A DNA stretch of 51,191 bases from positions 1 through 51,191 of the IMG/VR virus record IMGVR_UViG_3300033153_012783; one strand, written 5' to 3'. This DNA comes from a virus. Taxonomy: Duplodnaviria; Caudoviricetes. Positions within the stretch are counted from its first letter, which is position 1, and every line of letters starts with the position of its first letter. Below the pieces are notes generated by a model that ran no database searches, had not been told where the DNA came from, and was given only the letters and a program-made list of their open reading frames with translations. This document shows, in pieces, positions 23,738-43,310 of this stretch. Both the position numbers and the translations under genes were made by a program.

Positions 23738-25456
23738 ATGCAGGATTTAAACGATAAAATTACTGGAAATTCATTAACGGCAAATGAATGGAATGAAATG
23801 CCGACAGAGCTTCAAAATATAATTGAAGCTGTTGGTCAGACATTGAGTGCAGGCGATTTAGAACAAGTAAGAAAATCCTTAAATTTGGTATTTATTAGCT
23901 TCACGGAATTACGTGCTGTTGCAGCAGGAATGGGAACCGTTCTTGTTTCTGGATATGCTGCTTCTGGTGATGGTGGTGGCGGTGAATTTTATTGGGATTC
24001 TGCCTCTACTGAAACTGATAATGATGGAACAATTATAAAAGCCACATCAATAACAACTGGTCGGTGGAAACGACTTGTTACAGGTGAAGTTAATGTTAAA
24101 TGGTTTGGCGCTGTAGGTGATGGTGCAACAGATGATTCAACTGCTATTCAAGCTTCTATTGATGCAGTCACTGCTTCGAAAGGCATTGTATTTTTCCCAG
24201 AATCAAGCTCAAGCTACTTTATAGCATCGGCTCTAACCGTTCCACGAGGCGTCACTCTGAAGGGTCTAGGACATGATTCACCATCTACTATCGAGTGCGA
24301 CACTCTAAATAACGATATAACATTTATTACATTGGTCGGATATGCTCAGATTGAATCTCTGAATATAGAGGGTAACTCAACAACTCAAGGAATACTTGTT
24401 GCCATAACTGGCGGTATTTATACATTCACCGGCAATGTAAAATTAAAAGATGTAAGAATTACCGGGGCAGAGGTTGGTTTATTCATTAACAGCGTATTTA
24501 ATCTTGTTTTAGATAATGTTGAGGTTATATATAACGTAATCGGCGTCGATATGTCGCCATTAACTGATGCTGGAGATAATGGTTATATTAATGTTGTAAG
24601 TTTTAACTCCTGTTATTTTATTGGAAATACTGACTATGATGTATATGCGAATCCTGCAGTACGAATGTCAGATATTGTTTTCAATAATTGCACTTTCGAT
24701 CCTGGCCCAACTATTGCAAAAGTATATGCTTTTACCTCATATCCACTATCATTTAATGATTGTTATTTCGAGGGCGGGTCAACAGTTCCAGCCTTTAGCG
24801 GATATTTATCGACGGTTGGTTTTACAGCATGTTATTTCAACGGCACAAAAGGTGTCCTGCTCGACGCTACTGTTGCAGGAACTTTGTATATGGAGAGGTG
24901 CAGAACTACATCAACAGATATTATTGATTGTAATTATGCACTCCATGTTGTTCGTTTAAAGAATCAGACGCTCCCCTCATCTGGTAACGTATTCCTTACT
25001 GGACAAACTCGATTTTGGGACGATGCCATAGTAAATGGTACGACTTACGATCAAGTTGGTGCACCAGCTGGACATACTCCCGTTTTAACTGGAGCATCAA
25101 CGCCAGGGTCACCAACTTATGCAACTCAAACTATGCGCTACCAAGTAATTGGTAAGCGATGCTTCTTTAATGGCAGAGTGGCAATTACTGCTATCGGGGG
25201 GATGATCGGATCACTGGAGATTTCATTACCGTTTACGGCTGTAAATGTTTCAAACACTTATAGTATGTGCGCATTAGGCACAACGGGCGTAACACCTCAG
25301 TCTGGTAAAACTTCTTTCATGGGAAGGATAACCCCAAATACTGCGCTAATGTTATTGTATCAAGATGGAGATGCTACTGGCCTAGTGCCGATACTGGCTG
25401 CTGATATAGCGGCTACCACATCATTTTTCTTTAGTGGCGATTTTGAAATAGCATAA
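23738..25456 (+). CDS. Tail fibre/tailspike with pectate-lyase-like beta-helix (putative depolymerase)
   Basis: GDGGGGEFYWD and VNVKWFGAVGDGATDDSTAIQA motifs; beta-helix repeats. Confidence 0.85.
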   Translation: MQDLNDKITGNSLTANEWNEMPTELQNIIEAVGQTLSAGDLEQVRKSLNLVFISFTELRAVAAGMGTVLVSGYAASGDGGGGEFYWDSASTETDNDGTIIKATSITTGRWKRLVTGEVNVKWFGAVGDGATDDSTAIQASIDAVTASKGIVFFPESSSSYFIASALTVPRGVTLKGLGHDSPSTIECDTLNNDITFITLVGYAQIESLNIEGNSTTQGILVAITGGIYTFTGNVKLKDVRITGAEVGLFINSVFNLVLDNVEVIYNVIGVDMSPLTDAGDNGYINVVSFNSCYFIGNTDYDVYANPAVRMSDIVFNNCTFDPGPTIAKVYAFTSYPLSFNDCYFEGGSTVPAFSGYLSTVGFTACYFNGTKGVLLDATVAGTLYMERCRTTSTDIIDCNYALHVVRLKNQTLPSSGNVFLTGQTRFWDDAIVNGTTYDQVGAPAGHTPVLTGASTPGSPTYATQTMRYQVIGKRCFFNGRVAITAIGGMIGSLEISLPFTAVNVSNTYSMCALGTTGVTPQSGKTSFMGRITPNTALMLLYQDGDATGLVPILAADIAATTSFFFSGDFEIA

Positions 25457-25458
25457 CA

Positions 25459-26010
25459 ATGACCACAATTAAAGATAAAATCATTAGTGGAATCATCCGT
25501 GTTGAAGGTGGATATTCTAATGATTTATCCGATTCAGGTGGTGAAACAAATTACGGCATCACTGAAGCCGTAGCACGTTCATTTGGTTACACAGGTTCAA
25601 TGCGTGATATGCCTCGTGAGATCGCTTTTGATATTTATTCTGCGATGTATTGGGATTCGGTTTATGCAGATGGATTGTCTGAACTATCTGAACCTATTAC
25701 TGATGAAGTGGTTGATACTGCTGTCAACATGGGACCAGGCAGAGCCGGTGAATTTTTGCAGCGCTCATTGAATGTGCTCAATAATCTTGGAAGTCTTTAT
25801 CCAGATATCGTGGTTGATAATGCCATTGGGAAAGCTACGGCATCAGCCTTGAAACAATTTCTGTTTTATCGAGGAAAGGAAGGTGAGGAAACACTCGCTA
25901 AAATGCTGAATAGTTTGCAGGGTGCATTTTATGTCGAACTGGCGGAACGCCGGGAAAAAGACGAAAAATTTATTTATGGTTGGTTCAAAAATAGAGTCAA
26001 ATTGCCTTAG
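25459..26010 (+). CDS. Endolysin, glycoside hydrolase family 108 with PG-binding domain
   Basis: EGGYSND..DSGGETNYGIT, DTAVNMG, FIYGWFKNRV. Confidence 0.93.
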   Translation: MTTIKDKIISGIIRVEGGYSNDLSDSGGETNYGITEAVARSFGYTGSMRDMPREIAFDIYSAMYWDSVYADGLSELSEPITDEVVDTAVNMGPGRAGEFLQRSLNVLNNLGSLYPDIVVDNAIGKATASALKQFLFYRGKEGEETLAKMLNSLQGAFYVELAERREKDEKFIYGWFKNRVKLP

Positions 26011-26019
26011 GAGTTTTCG

Positions 26020-26406
26020 ATGTCTGGTGATGAAGTCCCAATGGTATCCCGTGAACATATGGAAACTCAGATTTCCATGGGTCGGGTTGAAACAATGCTA
26101 TCAATGCATCGTGAAGATTTTCTCGATCATTCAGCCAAAGATGAAAGGATATTTGGTGAACTATTTACACTTTCACGCAAGATTGAAGATGATGTTTTAT
26201 CCATCCCAGAAAAAATGTCTAAATGCCGAATAGAATTAAAGGGCGAAGTTATTGAGGATATGAAGGAAAACTTTGTTAGTAAGCCAGAATTTGATCTTTT
26301 TACGACCAAGATTGTATATGCCATTGTTGGCGGTGTTTCTGTCGCTGGCATAATTCAATGGATTCTTTCTAACTACATCAATGCATCTGCAATCGCCGGA
26401 GGTTAA
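26020..26406 (+). CDS. Membrane-anchored hypothetical protein in lysis cassette
   Basis: Helical region plus C-terminal hydrophobic segment. Confidence 0.7.
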   Translation: MSGDEVPMVSREHMETQISMGRVETMLSMHREDFLDHSAKDERIFGELFTLSRKIEDDVLSIPEKMSKCRIELKGEVIEDMKENFVSKPEFDLFTTKIVYAIVGGVSVAGIIQWILSNYINASAIAGG

Positions 26407-26407
26407 T

Positions 26408-26980
26408 ATGGATTTTGGTAAATTATTCGATACATTGAAGGGACCTGCATTAACCCTTGCATCAACGCTCATACCAGGTGGTCCGGCTATCCTTGGTGCG
26501 ATCAACCTCATGCTACCTGATGATAAAAAGCTCCCAGAAACCGCGACAGGCGCCGACATGCGTACTGCTGTTAATCAACTTCCACCGGAACAGCGTAGTT
26601 CTTTAATGGAAAAAGAGCTCGATGTGGAGATTGCTGACATTGAAGCATGGGCAGATATTCAGGAATCAATGGCCAAAGCTGATGCTGCCGGGGCAAGCAC
26701 ACGGCCAAGAATTGCGGTCATGATGGCGCAAGTAGTTGTATTCGTGATTTTGGTTTTTACATCGGTATTGGCAATCGCTATTTTTAATGAAAATACCGAA
26801 ACGCTGAAAATACTGAATGATTCCTGGGCAACAATATTTGCCGTAATTGCGACTCCGACTGCCTTATTGCGTGCTTATTTCGGTATGCGCACTACAGAAA
26901 AGAAAGCTCGATATAGCGCCATGTCTGGCAATAATGTTTCCGGTGGGCTTTCCTCTATAATTAAAGCATTCAAGGGGTAA
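26408..26980 (+). CDS. Putative holin
   Basis: TRPRIA followed by two TM segments and AYFGMRT.EK, as in GTA/3TM-type holins. Confidence 0.7.
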   Translation: MDFGKLFDTLKGPALTLASTLIPGGPAILGAINLMLPDDKKLPETATGADMRTAVNQLPPEQRSSLMEKELDVEIADIEAWADIQESMAKADAAGASTRPRIAVMMAQVVVFVILVFTSVLAIAIFNENTETLKILNDSWATIFAVIATPTALLRAYFGMRTTEKKARYSAMSGNNVSGGLSSIIKAFKG

Positions 26981-26983
26981 GAT

Positions 26984-27286
26984 ATGAATCTGGAAAAGAC
27001 GGCAAAGGCAATGGGTGATTGGCGCACCATCTGGATGGGTGTACTAATGATGATATCGTTGGCGGCATGGGCTGGTGATACCAGGTGGATGCTTAAGACA
27101 GGCGGCGAACAAATCTCAGTTCAGATAAAATTCGATGCATTGGAAGAAGATATCGAAGAACTTACCCTTGAGAAACGATTTGAAACTAATCCTGCAAAAG
27201 TCAAAAGACTGGATGCCATGATCGAGTACAAGAAAAATAAAATGGATTCTCTGATAAAAAAATATTCAATATCCAAGGATAATTAA
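26984..27286 (+). CDS. N-terminal TM coiled-coil protein (i-spanin-like topology)
   Basis: Hydrophobic IWMGVLMMISLAAWA followed by a heptad-like charged helix. Confidence 0.55.
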   Translation: MNLEKTAKAMGDWRTIWMGVLMMISLAAWAGDTRWMLKTGGEQISVQIKFDALEEDIEELTLEKRFETNPAKVKRLDAMIEYKKNKMDSLIKKYSISKDN

Positions 27287-27287
27287 A

Positions 27288-27614
27288 ATGGGAAAGAAAT
27301 TAATTTTATTGTTGATATGCCTTTCTCCTGGGTTCCTGTTTGCGAGTGAACCGCACCATACAACTGTGGTTATCACCGATACAGCTAAAACCACAAAGAT
27401 GCAGGGAACGGCCTTAAGCCTCGCTGCTGCTTCTCATACGTTTGACTGGGGCACCAAGGATTTGCAGGGCTCTGTTGGACTGGGTGGGTATAGTGGTGAG
27501 AATGCTCTATCTTTTGGCATTGGTAAGCGTTACGGGAGAACCCTTCTAAATGGCTCTCTGGGCGTGTCAGATGGTGAAACAGGGTACTCAGCTGCCGTTA
27601 ATTGGCATTTCTGA
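27288..27614 (+). CDS. Minimal trimeric-autotransporter (YadA-type) anchor protein
   Basis: Signal peptide; GTALSLAAAS helix; SVGLGGYSGENALSFGIG; C-terminal WHF. Confidence 0.8.
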   Translation: MGKKLILLLICLSPGFLFASEPHHTTVVITDTAKTTKMQGTALSLAAASHTFDWGTKDLQGSVGLGGYSGENALSFGIGKRYGRTLLNGSLGVSDGETGYSAAVNWHF

Positions 27615-27862
27615 TGGCACATGATCTGCACGACTGGCTGAAATTACTGCTTGAATATTTGAAGGGAAGCAAGGCTATTATTGCTGTCTGGATTCTGTTC
27701 TTCGGTACTGGAGCTTATACGGTGATTGATCTTATCCCCGAGAACGATCCCAGTGAACCTGAGATAACGGCTCCGGTAGTCCTTACCCCGCCAGCTACTA
27801 AGCAAGACCCTGTCGCTCTCTGCCGAAAGCTCCTTAGCGATCACATCATTGATCTGCACTGA
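27614..27862 (+). CDS. Small single-TM protein with Pro-rich tail
   Basis: TGATG coupling to the previous ORF; AIIAVWILFFG TM segment. Confidence 0.6.
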   Translation: MAHDLHDWLKLLLEYLKGSKAIIAVWILFFGTGAYTVIDLIPENDPSEPEITAPVVLTPPATKQDPVALCRKLLSDHIIDLH

Positions 27863-27996
27863 TTCCATATCGCTGTATTTAGATTCCAGGAGAGACATTA
27901 ATAATTCTTTCTCCATATCCGGTATATCTGGGCATTGCATTTTATGCTCATAACTCCCTACAGAGATCGAGCCAGCAAGTAATAAGGCTGTGAGTT

Positions 27997-28146
27997 CTAT
28001 CGGGGTCGGCATTGCATACATTCTGGCATCGTTATACATCCAGAAGTTAAGACCAAAATTGCAATAAAGATGGATACAATAATGATAAATTTCACAATAT
28101 CCCAAAGCGTCATTTCTTCATATTCTTCATCGGTTATTAACGGCAT
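27997..28146 (-). CDS. Small putative lipoprotein/membrane peptide (49 aa; not in ORF track)
   Basis: MPLITDEEYEEMTLWDIVKFIIIVSIFIAILVLTSG-C lipobox-like; GAGGA RBS. Confidence 0.5.
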   Translation of the reverse strand: MPLITDEEYEEMTLWDIVKFIIIVSIFIAILVLTSGCITMPECMQCRPR

Positions 28147-28147
28147 A

Positions 28148-28300
28148 TTATTTCTTCCTCATGGATGTTAAATGGTAACAACTACATTGATTGCAATAAT
28201 AATGTCTGGTCTCAGATTTACCGCGCCCCCGTCTTTTTCTAAGCCTGGATAGTGCTTTTTTGGCACCAATGAGATCATATTTTACTTTTACGCAATTCAT
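28148..28300 (-). CDS. Small Zn-finger protein (50 aa; not in ORF track)
   Basis: MNC...YYCNQCSCYHLTS; ATGA-coupled to the upstream gene. Confidence 0.65.
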   Translation of the reverse strand: MNCVKVKYDLIGAKKALSRLRKRRGRGKSETRHYYCNQCSCYHLTSMRKK

Positions 28301-28905
28301 CTCAATTCTTGTTCAGCTTGTTCCCATGCCTGATTGACCAAATGGAATCTGTCTGTGTCGCCGCCTTTGTCCGGATGAGCGGTTGCACGCGCTATTTTAT
28401 AGGCAGTATTGGCATCATCTATATCATCGCCGTAATAGTCTAGTATATCGCGCCAGGATGGCTGTGCGTCCGGATTAGGCAGGGCTGTAAAGCCGGTGAA
28501 GGTGCGTTCCAGTATCTCGCCGCCACCCCATCGCTCAATGCCTCTCATGGCTTCGATGGTCTTTCCGATGGCGTAAATGTTATCTGCTATGCGATCGTAC
28601 TTGTCCAGAGCAATGACACGCTGCTGATCGCCATCCTTCCACCACACTGATACACCTTTATCATCTGGATCCCGCTGATTTGAGTATGGCAACCCGTCCT
28701 GTCGAAGCCGTAAATCAGTGGAAATGATTATATTCCAGTCACCGGTGCCCATCCGGCGCAATTCTTCCAGCACAAAAGTCGTGGCCACGGCGATCGATAC
28801 CGGTTTCTGCCATTTACCAAAGCGGCTGCGCTCTGGCGAATTTGTTCTGGTCCATCCATCTGGCCAGGTCAGGGGCGAGGCTGTTATATGCTCTGTCATG
28901 ATCAA
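28297..28905 (-). CDS. Phage protein with C-terminal J-domain
   Basis: PLTWPDGWTRT N-terminus; AHPDKGG motif. Confidence 0.88.
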   Translation of the reverse strand: MIMTEHITASPLTWPDGWTRTNSPERSRFGKWQKPVSIAVATTFVLEELRRMGTGDWNIIISTDLRLRQDGLPYSNQRDPDDKGVSVWWKDGDQQRVIALDKYDRIADNIYAIGKTIEAMRGIERWGGGEILERTFTGFTALPNPDAQPSWRDILDYYGDDIDDANTAYKIARATAHPDKGGDTDRFHLVNQAWEQAEQELR

Positions 28906-29105
28906 GCCTCCATGAGACGTTGGCGTCTTTCTTTTGCATGTTGGATCAGATCATTTTTCCATTGTTCAGCAAATACATTGAGCTCTTCATCGGTTAATTC
29001 AGCAATATCTACCCGACCGCCGCCGCTGGAACGTATCCCAACTACGGTAATAAAATTAGGCAACTTTGGCGTTTTCAGTTTTAGTGTAATCGTAGAATCC
29101 GACAT
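28902..29105 (-). CDS. Hypothetical protein
   Basis: GAGGG RBS; coupled to the downstream gene. Confidence 0.7.
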   Translation of the reverse strand: MSDSTITLKLKTPKLPNFITVVGIRSSGGGRVDIAELTDEELNVFAEQWKNDLIQHAKERRQRLMEA

Positions 29106-29121
29106 TATTTATCCCTCGTTA

Positions 29122-29616
29122 TTAAATAGAAATATATTTTCCTGATATCCCACAACATCGAAGTAATTCAGCATCTTTGTTGCCATAGGCCACCAATATA
29201 GACGGGGCTCCAGCATTAGCCTTTGCCCGGGTTCCATCGATATGATGAAAATGCAATCGACCATAAATGAAAAGCACTGCTGTAGCCTTTTCCCAGACCT
29301 CAGTCACGAACATTTCGGTTTCTGTCCTGGCGAATATCAGAGCAGTTCCTTGACCATGCTTTGCCAGTCTAGCCAGCCATTTGCCCGTCTTTCTACCATA
29401 TGGAGGATTGCACCAGACGCGCCCAAACCATTCTTGCCATAGCCCATCATCCTCAGTGGTGTAATGGGTTTTTGCGGTATTCCATGGCCGCTGCATTGAT
29501 GCGCATGGATCCAGATCGAATTGACCAAGAGCCTTTAATATTTCAGGCGGGGTTAGCCAATCTTCTTTTTTCATATTGGCCGATTGATGGCTTCCCATTC
29601 CCTTAGTCATTTTCAA
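29122..29616 (-). CDS. Phage DNA N6-adenine methyltransferase (Dam family)
   Basis: WLTP, FDLDPCA, VWCNPPYG, ARTET. Confidence 0.9.
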   Translation of the reverse strand: MKMTKGMGSHQSANMKKEDWLTPPEILKALGQFDLDPCASMQRPWNTAKTHYTTEDDGLWQEWFGRVWCNPPYGRKTGKWLARLAKHGQGTALIFARTETEMFVTEVWEKATAVLFIYGRLHFHHIDGTRAKANAGAPSILVAYGNKDAELLRCCGISGKYISI

Positions 29617-34948: not shown

Positions 34949-35968
34949 TTATTTCAGCAGTTCTTTAATCTTGGCCTCTGCCATTTCTGACAATTCTGCC
35001 TGCTGTTTTTCATCCTCAATCTGGCCGATCAAATCACTCACCAGATCCACATCATCTGTGGTCTTGGCTTCGTTAATTTTCTCGGCCAGCTCTGCGAAGG
35101 TGACAACCGGTGCGCCATCTGATCCGGTTTCCTTGATCTCGCCGGTATCTGTATCCACATCAACCGCTTCCTCATTCTGATCGCCACCAGATAGGGAAGC
35201 ATTCAACGCATCGGCGCTTCCAGCATCCGGCGTAATATCGATTTCCATGGATTCAAATTCGATCTCGTCGGACTCCTGAATGGCTTGCTGCAGTTCGACC
35301 GATGCCGGGCAGAATTTCAATACCCGCTTGATGACCGTTTTCCATGCCATAGCTTCGTAATCAGTTTTCCATGGGCCGTTGTTCTTGGCTTTCGATCTGG
35401 CCTTGATGGCGTCAATTTCTTCTGGCGTCATAGGACCGGGGCCAAACGTAGTAGTGCCATCCGTAAATTGAACAACAGCGTAATAAAGAATTGCCTCGCC
35501 GCGGTCTTTGATGGCCGGTTTGTGCACCAGCTTTCGATTAAGGCCAAGCTCAAATTCAAACTCATCGTTTTCACGTACCGTGGCTGGGAAAATATCAGCG
35601 ATTTGCCCAGAACGTCTGGCCAGATCAATCAAGCCTTGATACATGGGAATAAATTGGCACTCCATGACGCCTTTCTGGTTATTTCTGAAAGGTACCAAAG
35701 CCCCGCCGCGGCCATCGGGTATCAGTCCATGCTCCGCTGCTCTCATAACGCTTGCCACAATCGATTCCTGCGTGGCGTTGGCTAGTGTTGGGTTGCGCTG
35801 CACCTGCAGGAAAACAATTCGCATGAATCGCTCTGGGCTGATCTGGGGTGGCAGCAAGGTTTTCAGCTGAGTCAGTTTGCCAACTAAACTTTCTTTCAAA
35901 GTCGGAAGTCGGTTTTCAGTCTGGGCAACCTCTTTCGATTTTTCTGGTTTCTGTTTATCTTTTGACAT
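34949..35968 (-). CDS. recT: RecT single-strand annealing protein
   Basis: SPERFMRI, YQGLIDLARRSG, GPWKTDYEAMAWKTVIKR. Confidence 0.95.
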   Translation of the reverse strand: MSKDKQKPEKSKEVAQTENRLPTLKESLVGKLTQLKTLLPPQISPERFMRIVFLQVQRNPTLANATQESIVASVMRAAEHGLIPDGRGGALVPFRNNQKGVMECQFIPMYQGLIDLARRSGQIADIFPATVRENDEFEFELGLNRKLVHKPAIKDRGEAILYYAVVQFTDGTTTFGPGPMTPEEIDAIKARSKAKNNGPWKTDYEAMAWKTVIKRVLKFCPASVELQQAIQESDEIEFESMEIDITPDAGSADALNASLSGGDQNEEAVDVDTDTGEIKETGSDGAPVVTFAELAEKINEAKTTDDVDLVSDLIGQIEDEKQQAELSEMAEAKIKELLK

Positions 35969-36013
35969 TTTCTTTTCCTTTTATTGGTTTACATTTACAT
36001 TGCTGGTTTACAA

Positions 36014-36958
36014 TTATGAATATTTGCCGCGTTCAGCCCATGGGGGCAGAATTAAATCCCTGACTTCAGATGGATAGCAGGGCCATTCATCGTTCTTTTT
36101 ACATTCATCAAATGTGCGCATATCCTGTCGCCACATAGCATGTCCGATATGTTTAGCCTCTTTGTCGAGCGTATAAATCCCAATGGCATAAGGTGGTTTT
36201 TTCTCAACCACCACAAATACAAAGGCCTGAACCGGAACTTTAGCGGCCTTGAGCCCAGCCAAATACATCTGCTCCTGTACGTGGTATCGATAATCGCTGA
36301 CCGCCCTTATGAAGTCCGAATACCTGGCGCTGGCTGCAGTTTTCAGATCAACCGCTACTCCATGTGCCTCGTTGAAGAAATCAACTCTACCGCGGCATAG
36401 CCGTCCGATTTCTTTGTCCATCCAATACATCGACTTTTCCGCCCAGCCTTGGTCTGGATCCAGAAGGATTGACGCTACTGGGTGTGCACGAACCGCATCT
36501 CGAATATTATGAAGCGTTGCCCAATCGCCGGGCTCCCAAAATGGGTCTTTACCGGGCTTGTCTTTGATGATGGTTTTGCCGAATGCGGCTGCTTGCCATT
36601 GATCATAAACCTCAATTTGAGCCTGCGTTTTCGGCGTGATGGTCTTGGCATTAATCTGGGCTGATGTTGGCTTTTTCGGCGCATCATCCTTGATATATTC
36701 CTGATCAAACCGTTCAGGCTCTAGCACCAAGCAATGCAGCGCTGATCCGATAATCATGGCCGGCGTGGCCGGTGGCGGATTCTCTTTTTCGGTTAAGTAA
36801 TGCAGTGGACTGACGTTGATATTGTCCAATCCGTGCTTATTTATTCCTGGCGATCGGTGGTAAATATGCTCGGGAATATCATCCCTCAATCCTAATTTAC
36901 TAAAATCATATTCCGGCTTTTCATTAGCCTCGGTTGTATCGGTTTCGGTATCCGACAT
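36014..36958 (-). CDS. RecE-like PD-(D/E)xK exonuclease (ExoVIII/DUF3799 type)
   Basis: GSALHCLVLEP, CRGRVD, VDLKT, YRYHVQ..Y, FVVVEK; adjacent to recT. Confidence 0.9.
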   Translation of the reverse strand: MSDTETDTTEANEKPEYDFSKLGLRDDIPEHIYHRSPGINKHGLDNINVSPLHYLTEKENPPPATPAMIIGSALHCLVLEPERFDQEYIKDDAPKKPTSAQINAKTITPKTQAQIEVYDQWQAAAFGKTIIKDKPGKDPFWEPGDWATLHNIRDAVRAHPVASILLDPDQGWAEKSMYWMDKEIGRLCRGRVDFFNEAHGVAVDLKTAASARYSDFIRAVSDYRYHVQEQMYLAGLKAAKVPVQAFVFVVVEKKPPYAIGIYTLDKEAKHIGHAMWRQDMRTFDECKKNDEWPCYPSEVRDLILPPWAERGKYS

Positions 36959-42412: not shown

Positions 42413-42565
42413 ATGGAATTAAGCAACTGTTGCGATGCTCCAAGATGGATGGATTTAGAATCTGACATTTGCTCTGATTGCAAAGAGCATGCTGATTTTT
42501 ACGATGAGGGTGATGAGTCTCTCGAAGATGGCCAAAATCAAAGTGGGGCAAATAAAACCGATTAA
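42413..42565 (+). CDS. Small Cys-rich protein (50 aa; not in ORF track)
   Basis: MELSNCCDAP...ICSDCKEHA; GAGGG RBS. Confidence 0.65.
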   Translation: MELSNCCDAPRWMDLESDICSDCKEHADFYDEGDESLEDGQNQSGANKTD

Positions 42566-42584
42566 TAAAAAACAAGGAAAGATA

Positions 42585-43310
42585 ATGACTACGCACTTGG
42601 TAGCTCTATCAGGCGGTAAGGACTCAACGGCAATGGCTATGCGGCTCGCTGAAATAGAGCCGAGAGATTATATCTATTTCTGCACACCCACTGGCGACGA
42701 ACTGCCTGAAATGATTGAGCACTGGAATAACCTCGAATGCATCCTTGGCAAGCCGATCATCAAATTAAAAGCGAAACTTGATCTGCATGGATTAATTGCT
42801 GAATTTTCAGCATTACCAAATCATAGGCAGCGATGGTGTACCAGGATGCTAAAAATTGAAGTGGCAAAAGCATTCTATTTAAAGAATTCACCGGCGATCG
42901 CTTATGTAGGCTTGAGGGCGGATGAAGAAGATCGAAAAGGTGGCATATATGGTGATATTGTCGATCAGAAATATCCAATGCGTGAATGGGGTTGGGATAT
43001 AAATGACGTCAAAAACTATCTGTATGAGAAGAATGTACAGATCCCAGAAAGGACGGATTGTGCGCAATGTTATGAACAAAGGCTGGGCGAATGGTGGGAT
43101 TTATGGAAAATTCATCCTGAATTATATGCAAATGCAGAAGCTCAAGAAGAAAAATATGGCCATACATTTCGAAGTGATACCAGAGATACTTGGCCAGCAA
43201 GCCTTAAATTAATGCGCGCTAGATTCGAATGTGGTGAAATACCAAGAGGATCCAGGAATCAAGAGGATTTGTTTGGCTATAATTCGAGATGCAGAGCATG
43301 TTCTTTATAA
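42585..43310 (+). CDS. PAPS-reductase-family (PP-loop) protein
   Basis: VALSGGKDSTAM, RWCTRMLK, VGLRADE..R; start moved to MTTHLV after AAGGA. Confidence 0.88.
   Translation: MTTHLVALSGGKDSTAMAMRLAEIEPRDYIYFCTPTGDELPEMIEHWNNLECILGKPIIKLKAKLDLHGLIAEFSALPNHRQRWCTRMLKIEVAKAFYLKNSPAIAYVGLRADEEDRKGGIYGDIVDQKYPMREWGWDINDVKNYLYEKNVQIPERTDCAQCYEQRLGEWWDLWKIHPELYANAEAQEEKYGHTFRSDTRDTWPASLKLMRARFECGEIPRGSRNQEDLFGYNSRCRACSL

Follow-up and report, generated by a model that had tools for sequence, protein, structure and literature searches.

We report on a lysis-associated gene module in IMG/VR virus record IMGVR_UViG_3300033153_012783 (Duplodnaviria; Caudoviricetes), a complete genome of 51,191 bp with direct terminal repeats and an estimated completeness of 100%, which was analysed over its full length and is called the window here. 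A prediction made from the DNA letters alone, referred to below as the original prediction, had drawn attention to three small open reading frames (ORFs) on the plus strand, and all three are present where it placed them, at positions 26984-27286, 27288-27614 and 27614-27862. The middle one encodes a passenger-less YadA-type anchor of 108 amino acids (aa), the barrel protein. We find that it belongs to a new family of phage mini-anchors of ~110 aa that is recurrently linked to lysis genes and accompanied by a conserved downstream partner with a transmembrane (TM) segment. Judged from the sequences, barrel and partner are well supported as a conserved module of phage lysis cassettes with a predicted function. 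We propose, with a probability of about one half, that the barrel is the outer-membrane (OM) subunit of a spanin-like lysis module that bridges the cell envelope. This proposal follows from the absence of a passenger, the coupling to a partner predicted to have its N-terminus inside, the location in the spanin slot of the cassette, the recurrence of the arrangement and the lack of a lipoprotein ORF.

Domain match, fold and C-terminal signature place the barrel protein in the YadA_anchor family. Its residues 60-108 match PF03895 (YadA_anchor) with an E-value of 7.5e-8 and 32.8 bits, above the gathering score of 22.7, and a six-frame search of the genome recovered this match again. The AlphaFold2 (AF2) model, calculated from a 50-row alignment, reaches a predicted local distance difference test score (pLDDT) of 88.9 and consists of a helix (residues 41-48) and four strands (60-68, 71-82, 85-94 and 97-106). 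The five best PDB structures found with this model by Foldseek are all anchors of the same type, namely AtaA (9vnj, ranked first), Hia (3emo, 2gr7 and 2gr8) and YadA (2lme), and a profile of the barrel family likewise found Hia in the PDB (2gr7, E 3.1e-4). The C-terminus reads NWHF, with the final Phe as the aromatic β-signal of outer-membrane proteins (OMPs). The four-strand YadA-type anchor ending in Phe that had been read from the sequence is thereby confirmed. At the other end, the protein starts with MGKK and a hydrophobic run within residues 1-19 up to LFA|SE, and a Sec signal peptide, MGKKLILLLICLSPGFLFA|S, is predicted for residues ~1-19/20; this call, like all signal-peptide and topology calls in this study, relies on heuristics (hydrophobicity and the positive-inside rule). 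The predicted signal peptide is separated from the anchor helix by the linker SEPHHTTVVITDTAKTT, which comprises ~17 residues, and the protein contains no further Pfam domain. Since nothing but this linker lies between them, the term passenger-less, already used in the original prediction, is apt, and the protein as a whole is not a trimeric autotransporter adhesin (TAA), being a barrel without a surface passenger. From its family membership, the protein would be expected to form a homotrimeric barrel of 12 strands in the OM. A net charge of about -1 was calculated for the mature barrel. A basic turn, G-K-R-F/Y (K80/R81), is invariant in the family and, in TAA topology, would be placed between strand 2 and strand 3 at the rim that faces the periplasm. 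Counted from the predicted cleavage site, a His pair occupies positions 4-5 of the mature barrel (27345-27356; residues 20-23, SEPHH).

Proteins of this kind form a large family. A profile of the five closest sequences retrieved 257 clusters (50% identity) at E<=1e-3, 93 of which also scored at E<=1e-10, and the best 150 of the 257 clusters span 66-161 aa. For 155 family proteins the median length is 117 aa (10th-90th percentile 106-129 aa), and F, W or Y is the final residue in 120 of them. PF03895 was matched by 48 of 50 family members tested. A His is found not more than 12 residues from the signal h-region in 89 of 114 evaluable proteins, typically as ..PHH.., and the spacer between h-region and anchor helix has a median of 28 residues with a range of 10-66. 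Three members (P0031, P0131 and P0134) bear a collagen-like GXY repeat of 30-45 residues between the His motif and the anchor, which would correspond to a trimeric rod ~10 nm long, and two others (P0059 and P0061) have (V/L)TE(V/I)TE repeats in place of GXY. The ten clusters that we looked up are metagenomic singletons or pairs. When the window barrel was compared by tblastn with 50,697 cultured phage records, eight records were returned, the matches being anchors of Eib or adhesin genes alone, with 31.5% identity; the L008 barrel (one of the loci described below) and family member P0013 found no match in the same records. In bacteria, 185,579 species genomes were scanned with two motifs, which gave 25 and 34 pattern matches and no confirmed relative among them. 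These pattern scans used motif-selected sub-alignments, the full alignments being too diverse, and with two motifs covered the absence from bacteria is suggested, not proven. By these sequence searches the mini-anchor family looks phage-specific.

The second component is encoded immediately downstream. To place it in context, we compared the window with 11 other loci obtained by motif-guided scans of IMG/VR and Joint Genome Institute (JGI) metagenomes and annotated by ORF listing, Pfam and PHROG. All ten loci that have downstream sequence contain, behind the barrel, a small protein with one TM segment, which is directly adjacent in nine of the ten at a spacing of -14 to +9 nucleotides (nt). 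In the window, the barrel stop and the start of the 82-aa partner gene (27614-27862) share one base (TGATG), and the ATG at 27614 is confirmed by the homologues P0157 and P0158, which also begin with MAHDLHD. With a TM segment at residues 22-40 and seven Pro in a tail of 42 residues, the partner is the TM/Pro-rich protein originally described. Three K/R precede the TM segment and none follow it, so that by the positive-inside rule an N-in/C-out orientation is predicted; the tail has a net charge of -4 and ends with LCRKLLSDHIIDLH. No Pfam match was obtained at E<=1. The three homologues of the partner are 67-85% identical to it and lie on contigs of 2649, 954 and 2049 bp, and equal sizes for the homologues of the barrel suggest that both genes are found on the same contigs. 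Of the two flanking proteins named in the original prediction, it is the downstream 82-aa protein that is conserved as partner, and not the 100-aa coiled-coil protein upstream.

Two types of partner can be distinguished. Type A (window, L002, L005, L010, L011, L012 and L013) has an N-terminal helix with the motif HD..DW.KL, the TM segment, a linker that varies and the C-terminal pattern C(xx)C...H....[FYL]H, in which the last His is invariant in all eight aligned type-A partners (27842-27859 at the C-terminus of the window partner); the periplasmic tails comprise 34-69 residues. Type B (L003, L007 and L008) has 111-151 aa with TM segment, Pro-containing linker and coiled coil, and its acidic, helical tail of 74-86 residues ends with R..[IL]E.LV[NQ]. 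Going by sequence features, the type-B partners have the predicted architecture of a textbook inner-membrane spanin subunit (i-spanin), a description that they fit better than the window proteins do. In L007 a 54-aa ORF with a zinc-ribbon-like CxxC...H motif (L007:2467-2631) is inserted between the two genes and has one-base overlaps with the barrel and the type-B partner. The barrels at type-B loci belong to one subclade, which also includes that of L006, share 40-68% mutual identity and have no His pair, and their partners have neither the terminal His nor the CxxC; barrels with the N-terminal His pair accompany type-A partners that end in His. This covariation of subtypes, seen in two clades only, would be weak support for co-evolution and agrees with a physical pair. 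A complex prediction with three mature barrels (residues 20-108) and three partner tails (residues 42-82) scored 0.00 with an uncertain partner fold, and speaks neither for nor against binding.

Because the proteins are short and a 153-aa antisense ORF (27644-28105, minus strand) overlaps the 82-aa gene by 219 nt, one might regard the ORFs as products of chance or as the remnant of a decayed adhesin. This view is effectively refuted by conservation: it would have to account for the related clusters with their PF03895 matches, the confident AF2 model, and the homologues of the partner and the 100-aa protein at 58-85% identity. The antisense ORF itself has no Pfam or PHROG match, and its overlapping part is probably spurious, the plus-strand gene being the conserved one.

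A survey of gene neighbourhoods had been suggested as a check of the original prediction, and its outcome is favourable. In 10 of the 12 loci, the distance from the mini-anchor to an endolysin and/or a holin-like gene is 0-3 genes. Next to it we find GH108 in the window, an M15-type endolysin (phrog_465, 6.4e-41) together with a phrog_1544 protein in L003, Amidase_2 in L004 (6.9e-21), a fragment of the same amidase, recognized by eye, in L005, a phrog_6637 membrane protein in L006, L007 and L008 (in L007 along with a DUF5675 protein), Amidase_3 and a phrog_1544 protein in L012, and a fragment of a phrog_894 endolysin in L013. In L011, Amidase_2 is directly upstream and a holin (PF11351 GTA_holin_3TM, 3.3e-23; phrog_3427 'holin') just downstream. 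Hence five endolysin families are represented (GH108, M15-type phrog_465, Amidase_2 in L004 and L011, Amidase_3 and phrog_894), and the barrels of the 12 loci, with identities of 14-76%, form about seven lineages. The linkage can therefore not be explained by a single cassette that was inherited as a block. In L003, L011, L012 and L013 the pair is flanked by an endolysin on one side and a holin-like gene on the other.

A holin-like neighbour is present in 8 of the 12 loci (window, L003, L006, L007, L008, L011, L012 and L013). This proximity would suit a function of barrel and partner as a lysis-timing sensor through which a signal from the envelope, for instance superinfection or the peptidoglycan state, reaches the holin, in analogy to antiholins and lysis inhibition, and the conserved cytoplasmic N-terminal helix HD..DW.KL of the partner could contact the holin. 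However, no similarity to antiholins was found in PHROG or Pfam, and a sensor would leave the breach of the OM without a spanin unexplained. Moreover, we know of no precedent for a β-barrel in a lysis-timing circuit and consider this function highly unlikely.

No canonical spanin was found alongside the module. Lipoprotein signals (lipoboxes) were sought with regular-expression heuristics in all six frames, from every ATG, GTG and TTG start and at two stringencies. As the original prediction had stated for the strand of the cassette, these scans gave no credible lipobox ORF on the coding strand, and the same is true for the rest of the complete window genome, including any canonical OM spanin subunit (o-spanin) embedded in another gene. 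Neither was a credible candidate present in a second complete genome with the module (G006) or on the coding strand of the 11 other loci as far as their flanks are visible. The spanin families of PHROG and Pfam were not matched by the 100-aa, 82-aa, barrel or type-B proteins, and the PHROG result holds even at E<=1 for the 100-aa, 82-aa and type-B partner proteins. Cys11 of the barrel was considered as a lipobox Cys and rejected, given the Ile at -1 (LLI), a signal of just 10 residues and the lack of conservation of the Cys in homologues. A minus-strand ORF of 49 aa (28146-27997; LVLTSG|CITMPECMQCRPR) was likewise rejected as o-spanin on account of its opposite strand and its mature peptide of 13 residues. 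This ORF stands at the end of a converging leftward operon and has an acidic N-terminus, one TM segment and three Cys in CITMPECMQCRPR; read from an internal GTG it resembles a near-canonical lipoprotein signal, with a weak match to phrog_19709 (0.026). Since it has neither a lipobox nor a match to a spanin family, the barrel stands outside any known spanin family and would be a spanin analogue only in its proposed function.

We suggest the following mechanism. The barrel would be exported by Sec and inserted by the β-barrel assembly machinery (BAM) as a trimeric 12-strand OM barrel of the YadA/Hia type, thus providing the OM anchor that is provided by the lipoprotein in Rz1-type spanins. Together with the translationally coupled N-in/C-out 82-aa protein, it would constitute a late-expressed envelope-bridging lysis module that stands in for the i-spanin/o-spanin pair missing from the window phage, and the 100-aa TM-helical protein could be a third component. 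The acidic, His-terminated tail of the partner may dock on that side of the barrel which faces the periplasm, at the basic turn G-K-R-F/Y, which would resemble the docking of TpgA on the AtaA anchor. After removal of the peptidoglycan mesh by the endolysin, the complexes would be free to breach the OM, be it by lateral clustering and rupture, by pulling or by other means, as the fusion mediated by the lipid anchors of Rz/Rz1 could not be transferred directly. In a possible sub-variant suggested by the conserved motifs, the N-terminal His pair of the barrel and the terminal His of type-A partners, with its CxxC, form a metal-bridged handshake in the periplasm. The short N-terminal segment of the barrel would then remain unexported and both termini would be periplasmic. 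Going one step further, the module might define a third class of spanins, in which a 'β-barrel o-spanin', i.e. a phage-specific passenger-less anchor, and a co-evolving type II partner form a three-fold bridge that breaches the OM after peptidoglycan degradation. We put forward this wider claim tentatively and rate its chances somewhat below even.

Alternatively, the barrel alone could weaken the OM, through poorly plugged 12-strand pores or by loading BAM, with the TM protein serving as chaperone, inhibitor or timer. The linkage to lysis cassettes is equally strong evidence for this possibility, type-A tails of 34-69 residues argue against a full bridge, and a non-spanin OM disruptor has a precedent in phiKT gp28 (10.1101/515445). 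On the other hand, a stoichiometric complex is suggested by the covariation of subtypes and by the inner-membrane protein that is strictly paired and translationally coupled with the barrel in 10 of 10 loci, type-B partners have periplasmic coiled-coil domains of 74-86 residues, and the lumen helix that plugs TAA pores is retained. Overall, we regard an action of the barrel by itself as quite unlikely.

Several observations weigh against an envelope-bridging role. The 42-residue tail of the window partner is short for spanning the periplasm on its own. In canonical TAA topology the N-terminus points outward and only short turns face the periplasm, and the part that the membrane-fusion model assigns to a lipid-anchored o-spanin cannot be played by a transmembrane barrel. 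A further genome with the module, G004 (93% complete), codes for a canonical small lipoprotein (L022:14884-15015, minus strand) with the signal MKLLPLILLLSA|C and a mature part of 31 residues that contains three further Cys; this lipoprotein, whose gene lies in an early-like region at a distance of ~24 kb from the cassette and has no TM protein next to it, might act in exclusion or represent an orphan o-spanin. The term holin-like is inferred in 5 of the 10 linked loci, as phrog_1544 and phrog_6637 both carry the annotation 'unknown function'. In L002 and L010, two related podovirus-like contigs (25-47% complete), the pair lies between a portal-like gene and a large structural gene, and 19.9 kb of sequence show no lysis gene. 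The operon stops after the holin-like gene in Oceanospirillum phage vB_OsaM_PD0307 and Vibrio phage 1.214.O, two of the nine cultured phages in which a relative of the holin-like gene occurs; both match the tailspike, endolysin and holin-like layout of the window and have none of the three module genes. Since the operons of these cultured relatives end without it, the module is accessory to that backbone. Finally, g139 of Yersinia phage phiR1-RT, a protein of 122 aa that combines a signal peptide with a short stalk and a YadA anchor of the classical kind (L025:3523-3891, minus strand), is encoded in a transfer RNA (tRNA) region outside any lysis cassette and without a TM neighbour, showing that an anchor of this length can exist in a phage without a link to lysis genes. 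We assign g139 to a separate lineage of near-passenger-less phage anchors, given its anchor motif of the classical cellular type and the absence of significant similarity to the window barrel (pairwise E 0.09).

As another possibility, the pair could be an accessory, moron-like surface module that mediates exclusion, receptor block or altered adhesion and for which the lysis position is merely a permissive insertion site. Phage envelope and surface proteins of the Cor, Llp, Lom and Eib type alter the surface of the infected cell. An accessory nature would agree with the position as the last genes of the operon, directly ahead of the strand switch, with the two cultured phages of the same layout that end their operon without the module, with the 2 of 12 loci outside lysis cassettes, and with the short collagen-like or repeat passengers of P0031, P0131 and P0134. 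In addition, earlier phage proteins with YadA anchors (Eib, N4-like, S6 gp046 and those named in BFVD) have all been read as adhesins or virulence-type genes. However, neutral insertion fails to explain a linkage that extends over endolysins of five families and over barrels with identities of 14-76%, the pair is located between lysis genes and not at the operon end in L003, L011, L012 and L013, and an exposed segment of ~17 residues offers little surface for adhesion. Lysogenic conversion is unlikely as well, as a tyrosine or serine recombinase (integrase/resolvase) was not found in the complete window genome. We therefore consider an accessory surface function unlikely. The original prediction had left the choice between an OM partner for fusion or disruption and a role in exclusion or BAM interference. 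The comparative evidence favours the former, and the prediction is partly supported.

In the window, the plus strand carries in this order the genes of a tailspike, the endolysin, a 128-aa, a 199-aa and the 100-aa protein, the barrel and the 82-aa partner, and the last three genes form the end of the operon. The pectate-lyase-like tailspike (23738-25456) is followed by an endolysin of 183 aa (25459-26010) with GH108 and PG_binding_3 domains (PF05838, 3.2e-22; PF09374, 5.7e-19; phrog_315 'endolysin', 3e-42). The 128-aa membrane protein (26020-26406) has a C-terminal TM segment at residues 98-116 according to its hydrophobicity and no match in Pfam and PHROG searches; a homologue was recognized by eye at L012:2805-3197, in a matching position ahead of the endolysin. 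By its position it is a candidate for a holin or antiholin. The 199-aa membrane protein (26381-26980), with its strongest TM segment at residues 117-135, matches phrog_1544 (8.5e-7) and phrog_6637 (0.0034), and proteins of these PHROGs also occur beside the barrel in L003, L006, L007, L008 and L012. Position and TM content make it a putative holin. Thus, of the endolysin and holin that the original prediction had placed upstream of the module, the endolysin is backed by domain matches and the holin is putative. In tblastn searches the 199-aa protein has relatives with 25-40% identity in eight Vibrio phages and one Oceanospirillum phage, where they adjoin M15 endolysins. Two cultured marine phages, L014 (OL658619) and L015 (MG592584), have an M15 endolysin and a holin-like gene, in OL658619 with a tailspike; no spanin is annotated next to these genes, a lipobox scan of the 6.5-kb stretches gave no candidate, and the two phages may be spanin-less by the usual criteria.

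The 100-aa protein (26984-27286) is separated from the 199-aa gene by a 3-nt gap and from the barrel gene by a 1-nt gap. Its N-terminal TM segment, read from the sequence before, is seen as a hydrophobic window at residues 15-33; the coiled-coil part of that description is represented by a helical domain modelled at modest confidence, the AF2 model being all-helical (residues 3-38, 41-66 and 70-94) with a pLDDT of 66. Five homologues share 58-70% identity, weak look-alikes (23-27% identity) are found among the other loci in L002 and L003, and there is no PHROG match even at E<=1. In the ESM Atlas, the 100-aa and 82-aa proteins retrieved viral clusters scoring 0.78-0.81, below the meaningful level. 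The 100-aa protein appears i-spanin-like in its predicted architecture, and its role is less certain than that of the 82-aa partner.

Outside the cassette, the genome has a guanine-plus-cytosine content of ~44% and switches strands near 28 kb. On the minus strand it codes for RecT and a PDDEXK-like protein (DUF3799), which form a recombination pair (34949-36958), and for a Dam methylase (29122-29616); a phosphoadenosine phosphosulfate reductase-like protein is encoded on the plus strand (42489-43310). Beyond the strand switch follow, on the minus strand, a basic CxxC protein of 50 aa (28148-28300) and a 202-aa protein without family match (28297-28905), whose C-terminus looks J-domain-like by eye (HPDKGG). 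No tRNA genes were found in the window, and a scan of 25000-29000 for promoters and terminators gave sites no more frequent than in shuffled sequence. Searches against cultured phages returned no match for the 531-aa ORF at 891-2486 (presumed terminase) with tblastn and none for the window cassette with megablast. Cultured relatives were found for just one cassette gene, that of the 199-aa membrane protein, and all are marine phages. The host is probably a marine Gram-negative bacterium, an assignment for which these Vibrio and Oceanospirillum phages are the sole basis.

How phages without spanins breach the OM is the question addressed here, and the module, small as it is (108 + 82 aa), offers a concrete and widespread candidate (257 clusters). 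If the proposed function is true, the module would account for part of the ~13-15% of Gram-negative phages without a recognizable spanin, the spanin concept would extend from lipid-anchored proteins to integral β-barrels, and the translocator of trimeric autotransporters would gain a function without an adhesin. Annotation pipelines, which now look for lipoboxes only, would gain a signature in the form of PF03895 proteins below ~150 aa beside lysis genes. Viral PF03895 matches, which are now read as virulence-type auxiliary genes (PMC10654107), would need rereading.

Phage-encoded PF03895 proteins are known from Eib, from the 'adhesins' of N4-like and phiEco32-type phages and from Tegunavirus g139. 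Eib and the adhesins carry real passengers, and gp046 of Erwinia phage S6, which is labelled 'adhesin', has 379 aa and lies beside serine protease and dUTPase genes. BFVD lists phage YadA anchors under adhesin names and also contains short ones of T4-like Yersinia phages, a protein with a YadA anchor in phage TG1 has 90 aa, and g139 is annotated in UniProt by its domain only. None of S6 gp046, g139 and Eib (the latter by annotation only) is described as lysis-linked. For N4-like viruses, PF03895 genes were taken as virulence-type auxiliary genes in a study with 19 PF03895 genomes (PMC10654107). In a full-text literature search that excluded subscription journals and supplements, no YadA-type anchor or OMP with a demonstrated spanin role was found.

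The anchors of YadA, Hia and AtaA share the Pfam domain, the arrangement of a helix and four strands, and the aromatic C-terminus with the window barrel, which differs from them in having no head or stalk passenger and in being encoded in a phage lysis cassette instead of an adhesin operon. The TM domain of AtaA forms an A3B3 complex with TpgA, the product of the taa-tpgA cassette, and the N-domain of TpgA is BamE-like, as reported (10.1101/2023.12.21.572085). Likewise, our module pairs a barrel with a dedicated partner from the same cassette that would act on the periplasmic face. Unlike TpgA, the 82-aa partner consists of a single TM segment and a Pro-rich tail without Pfam match. We rejected a TAA-TpgA-type cassette, as no BamE-like domain was matched in the partner and only the idea of periplasmic docking carries over.

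To our knowledge, the disruptin is the only alternative to spanins described so far. Kongari et al. (2018) failed to find a spanin for 91 of 677 phages and considered that the role of o-spanin might be taken by an OMP, and Holt et al. (10.1101/515445) give a figure of ~15% spanin-less phages. The disruptin gp28 of the spanin-less phage phiKT is portrayed in the same source as a non-spanin OM disruptor and cationic antimicrobial peptide, whereas the barrel has a predicted signal peptide, a folded β-barrel and, in its mature form, a charge of about -1; for these reasons we rejected it as a disruptin-type peptide. The unimolecular spanins (u-spanins) of the T1 gp11 type have been reported as single chains that carry a lipobox at the N-terminus and a TM segment at the C-terminus, and none was found in the window by the lipobox scans. 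Both u-spanin and disruptin are similar to the proposed module as alternative solutions for the OM step in phages without pairs of the Rz/Rz1 type. In two-component spanins such as lambda Rz/Rz1, the OM subunit is a lipobox lipoprotein, whereas the module described here would rely on a Sec- and BAM-dependent β-barrel. It also differs from Rz/Rz1 in that the OM gene precedes that of the inner-membrane partner in 10 of 10 loci, in the lack of a match to spanin PHROGs and in the very short tail of type-A partners. In common with lambda Rz/Rz1, it consists of small genes that neighbour and in many cases overlap each other in a lysis cassette of a phage with no further candidate for the OM step, and it has a membrane protein of predicted N-in orientation, whose periplasmic tail would be coiled-coil in type-B partners, and a second product that is predicted to be targeted to the OM.

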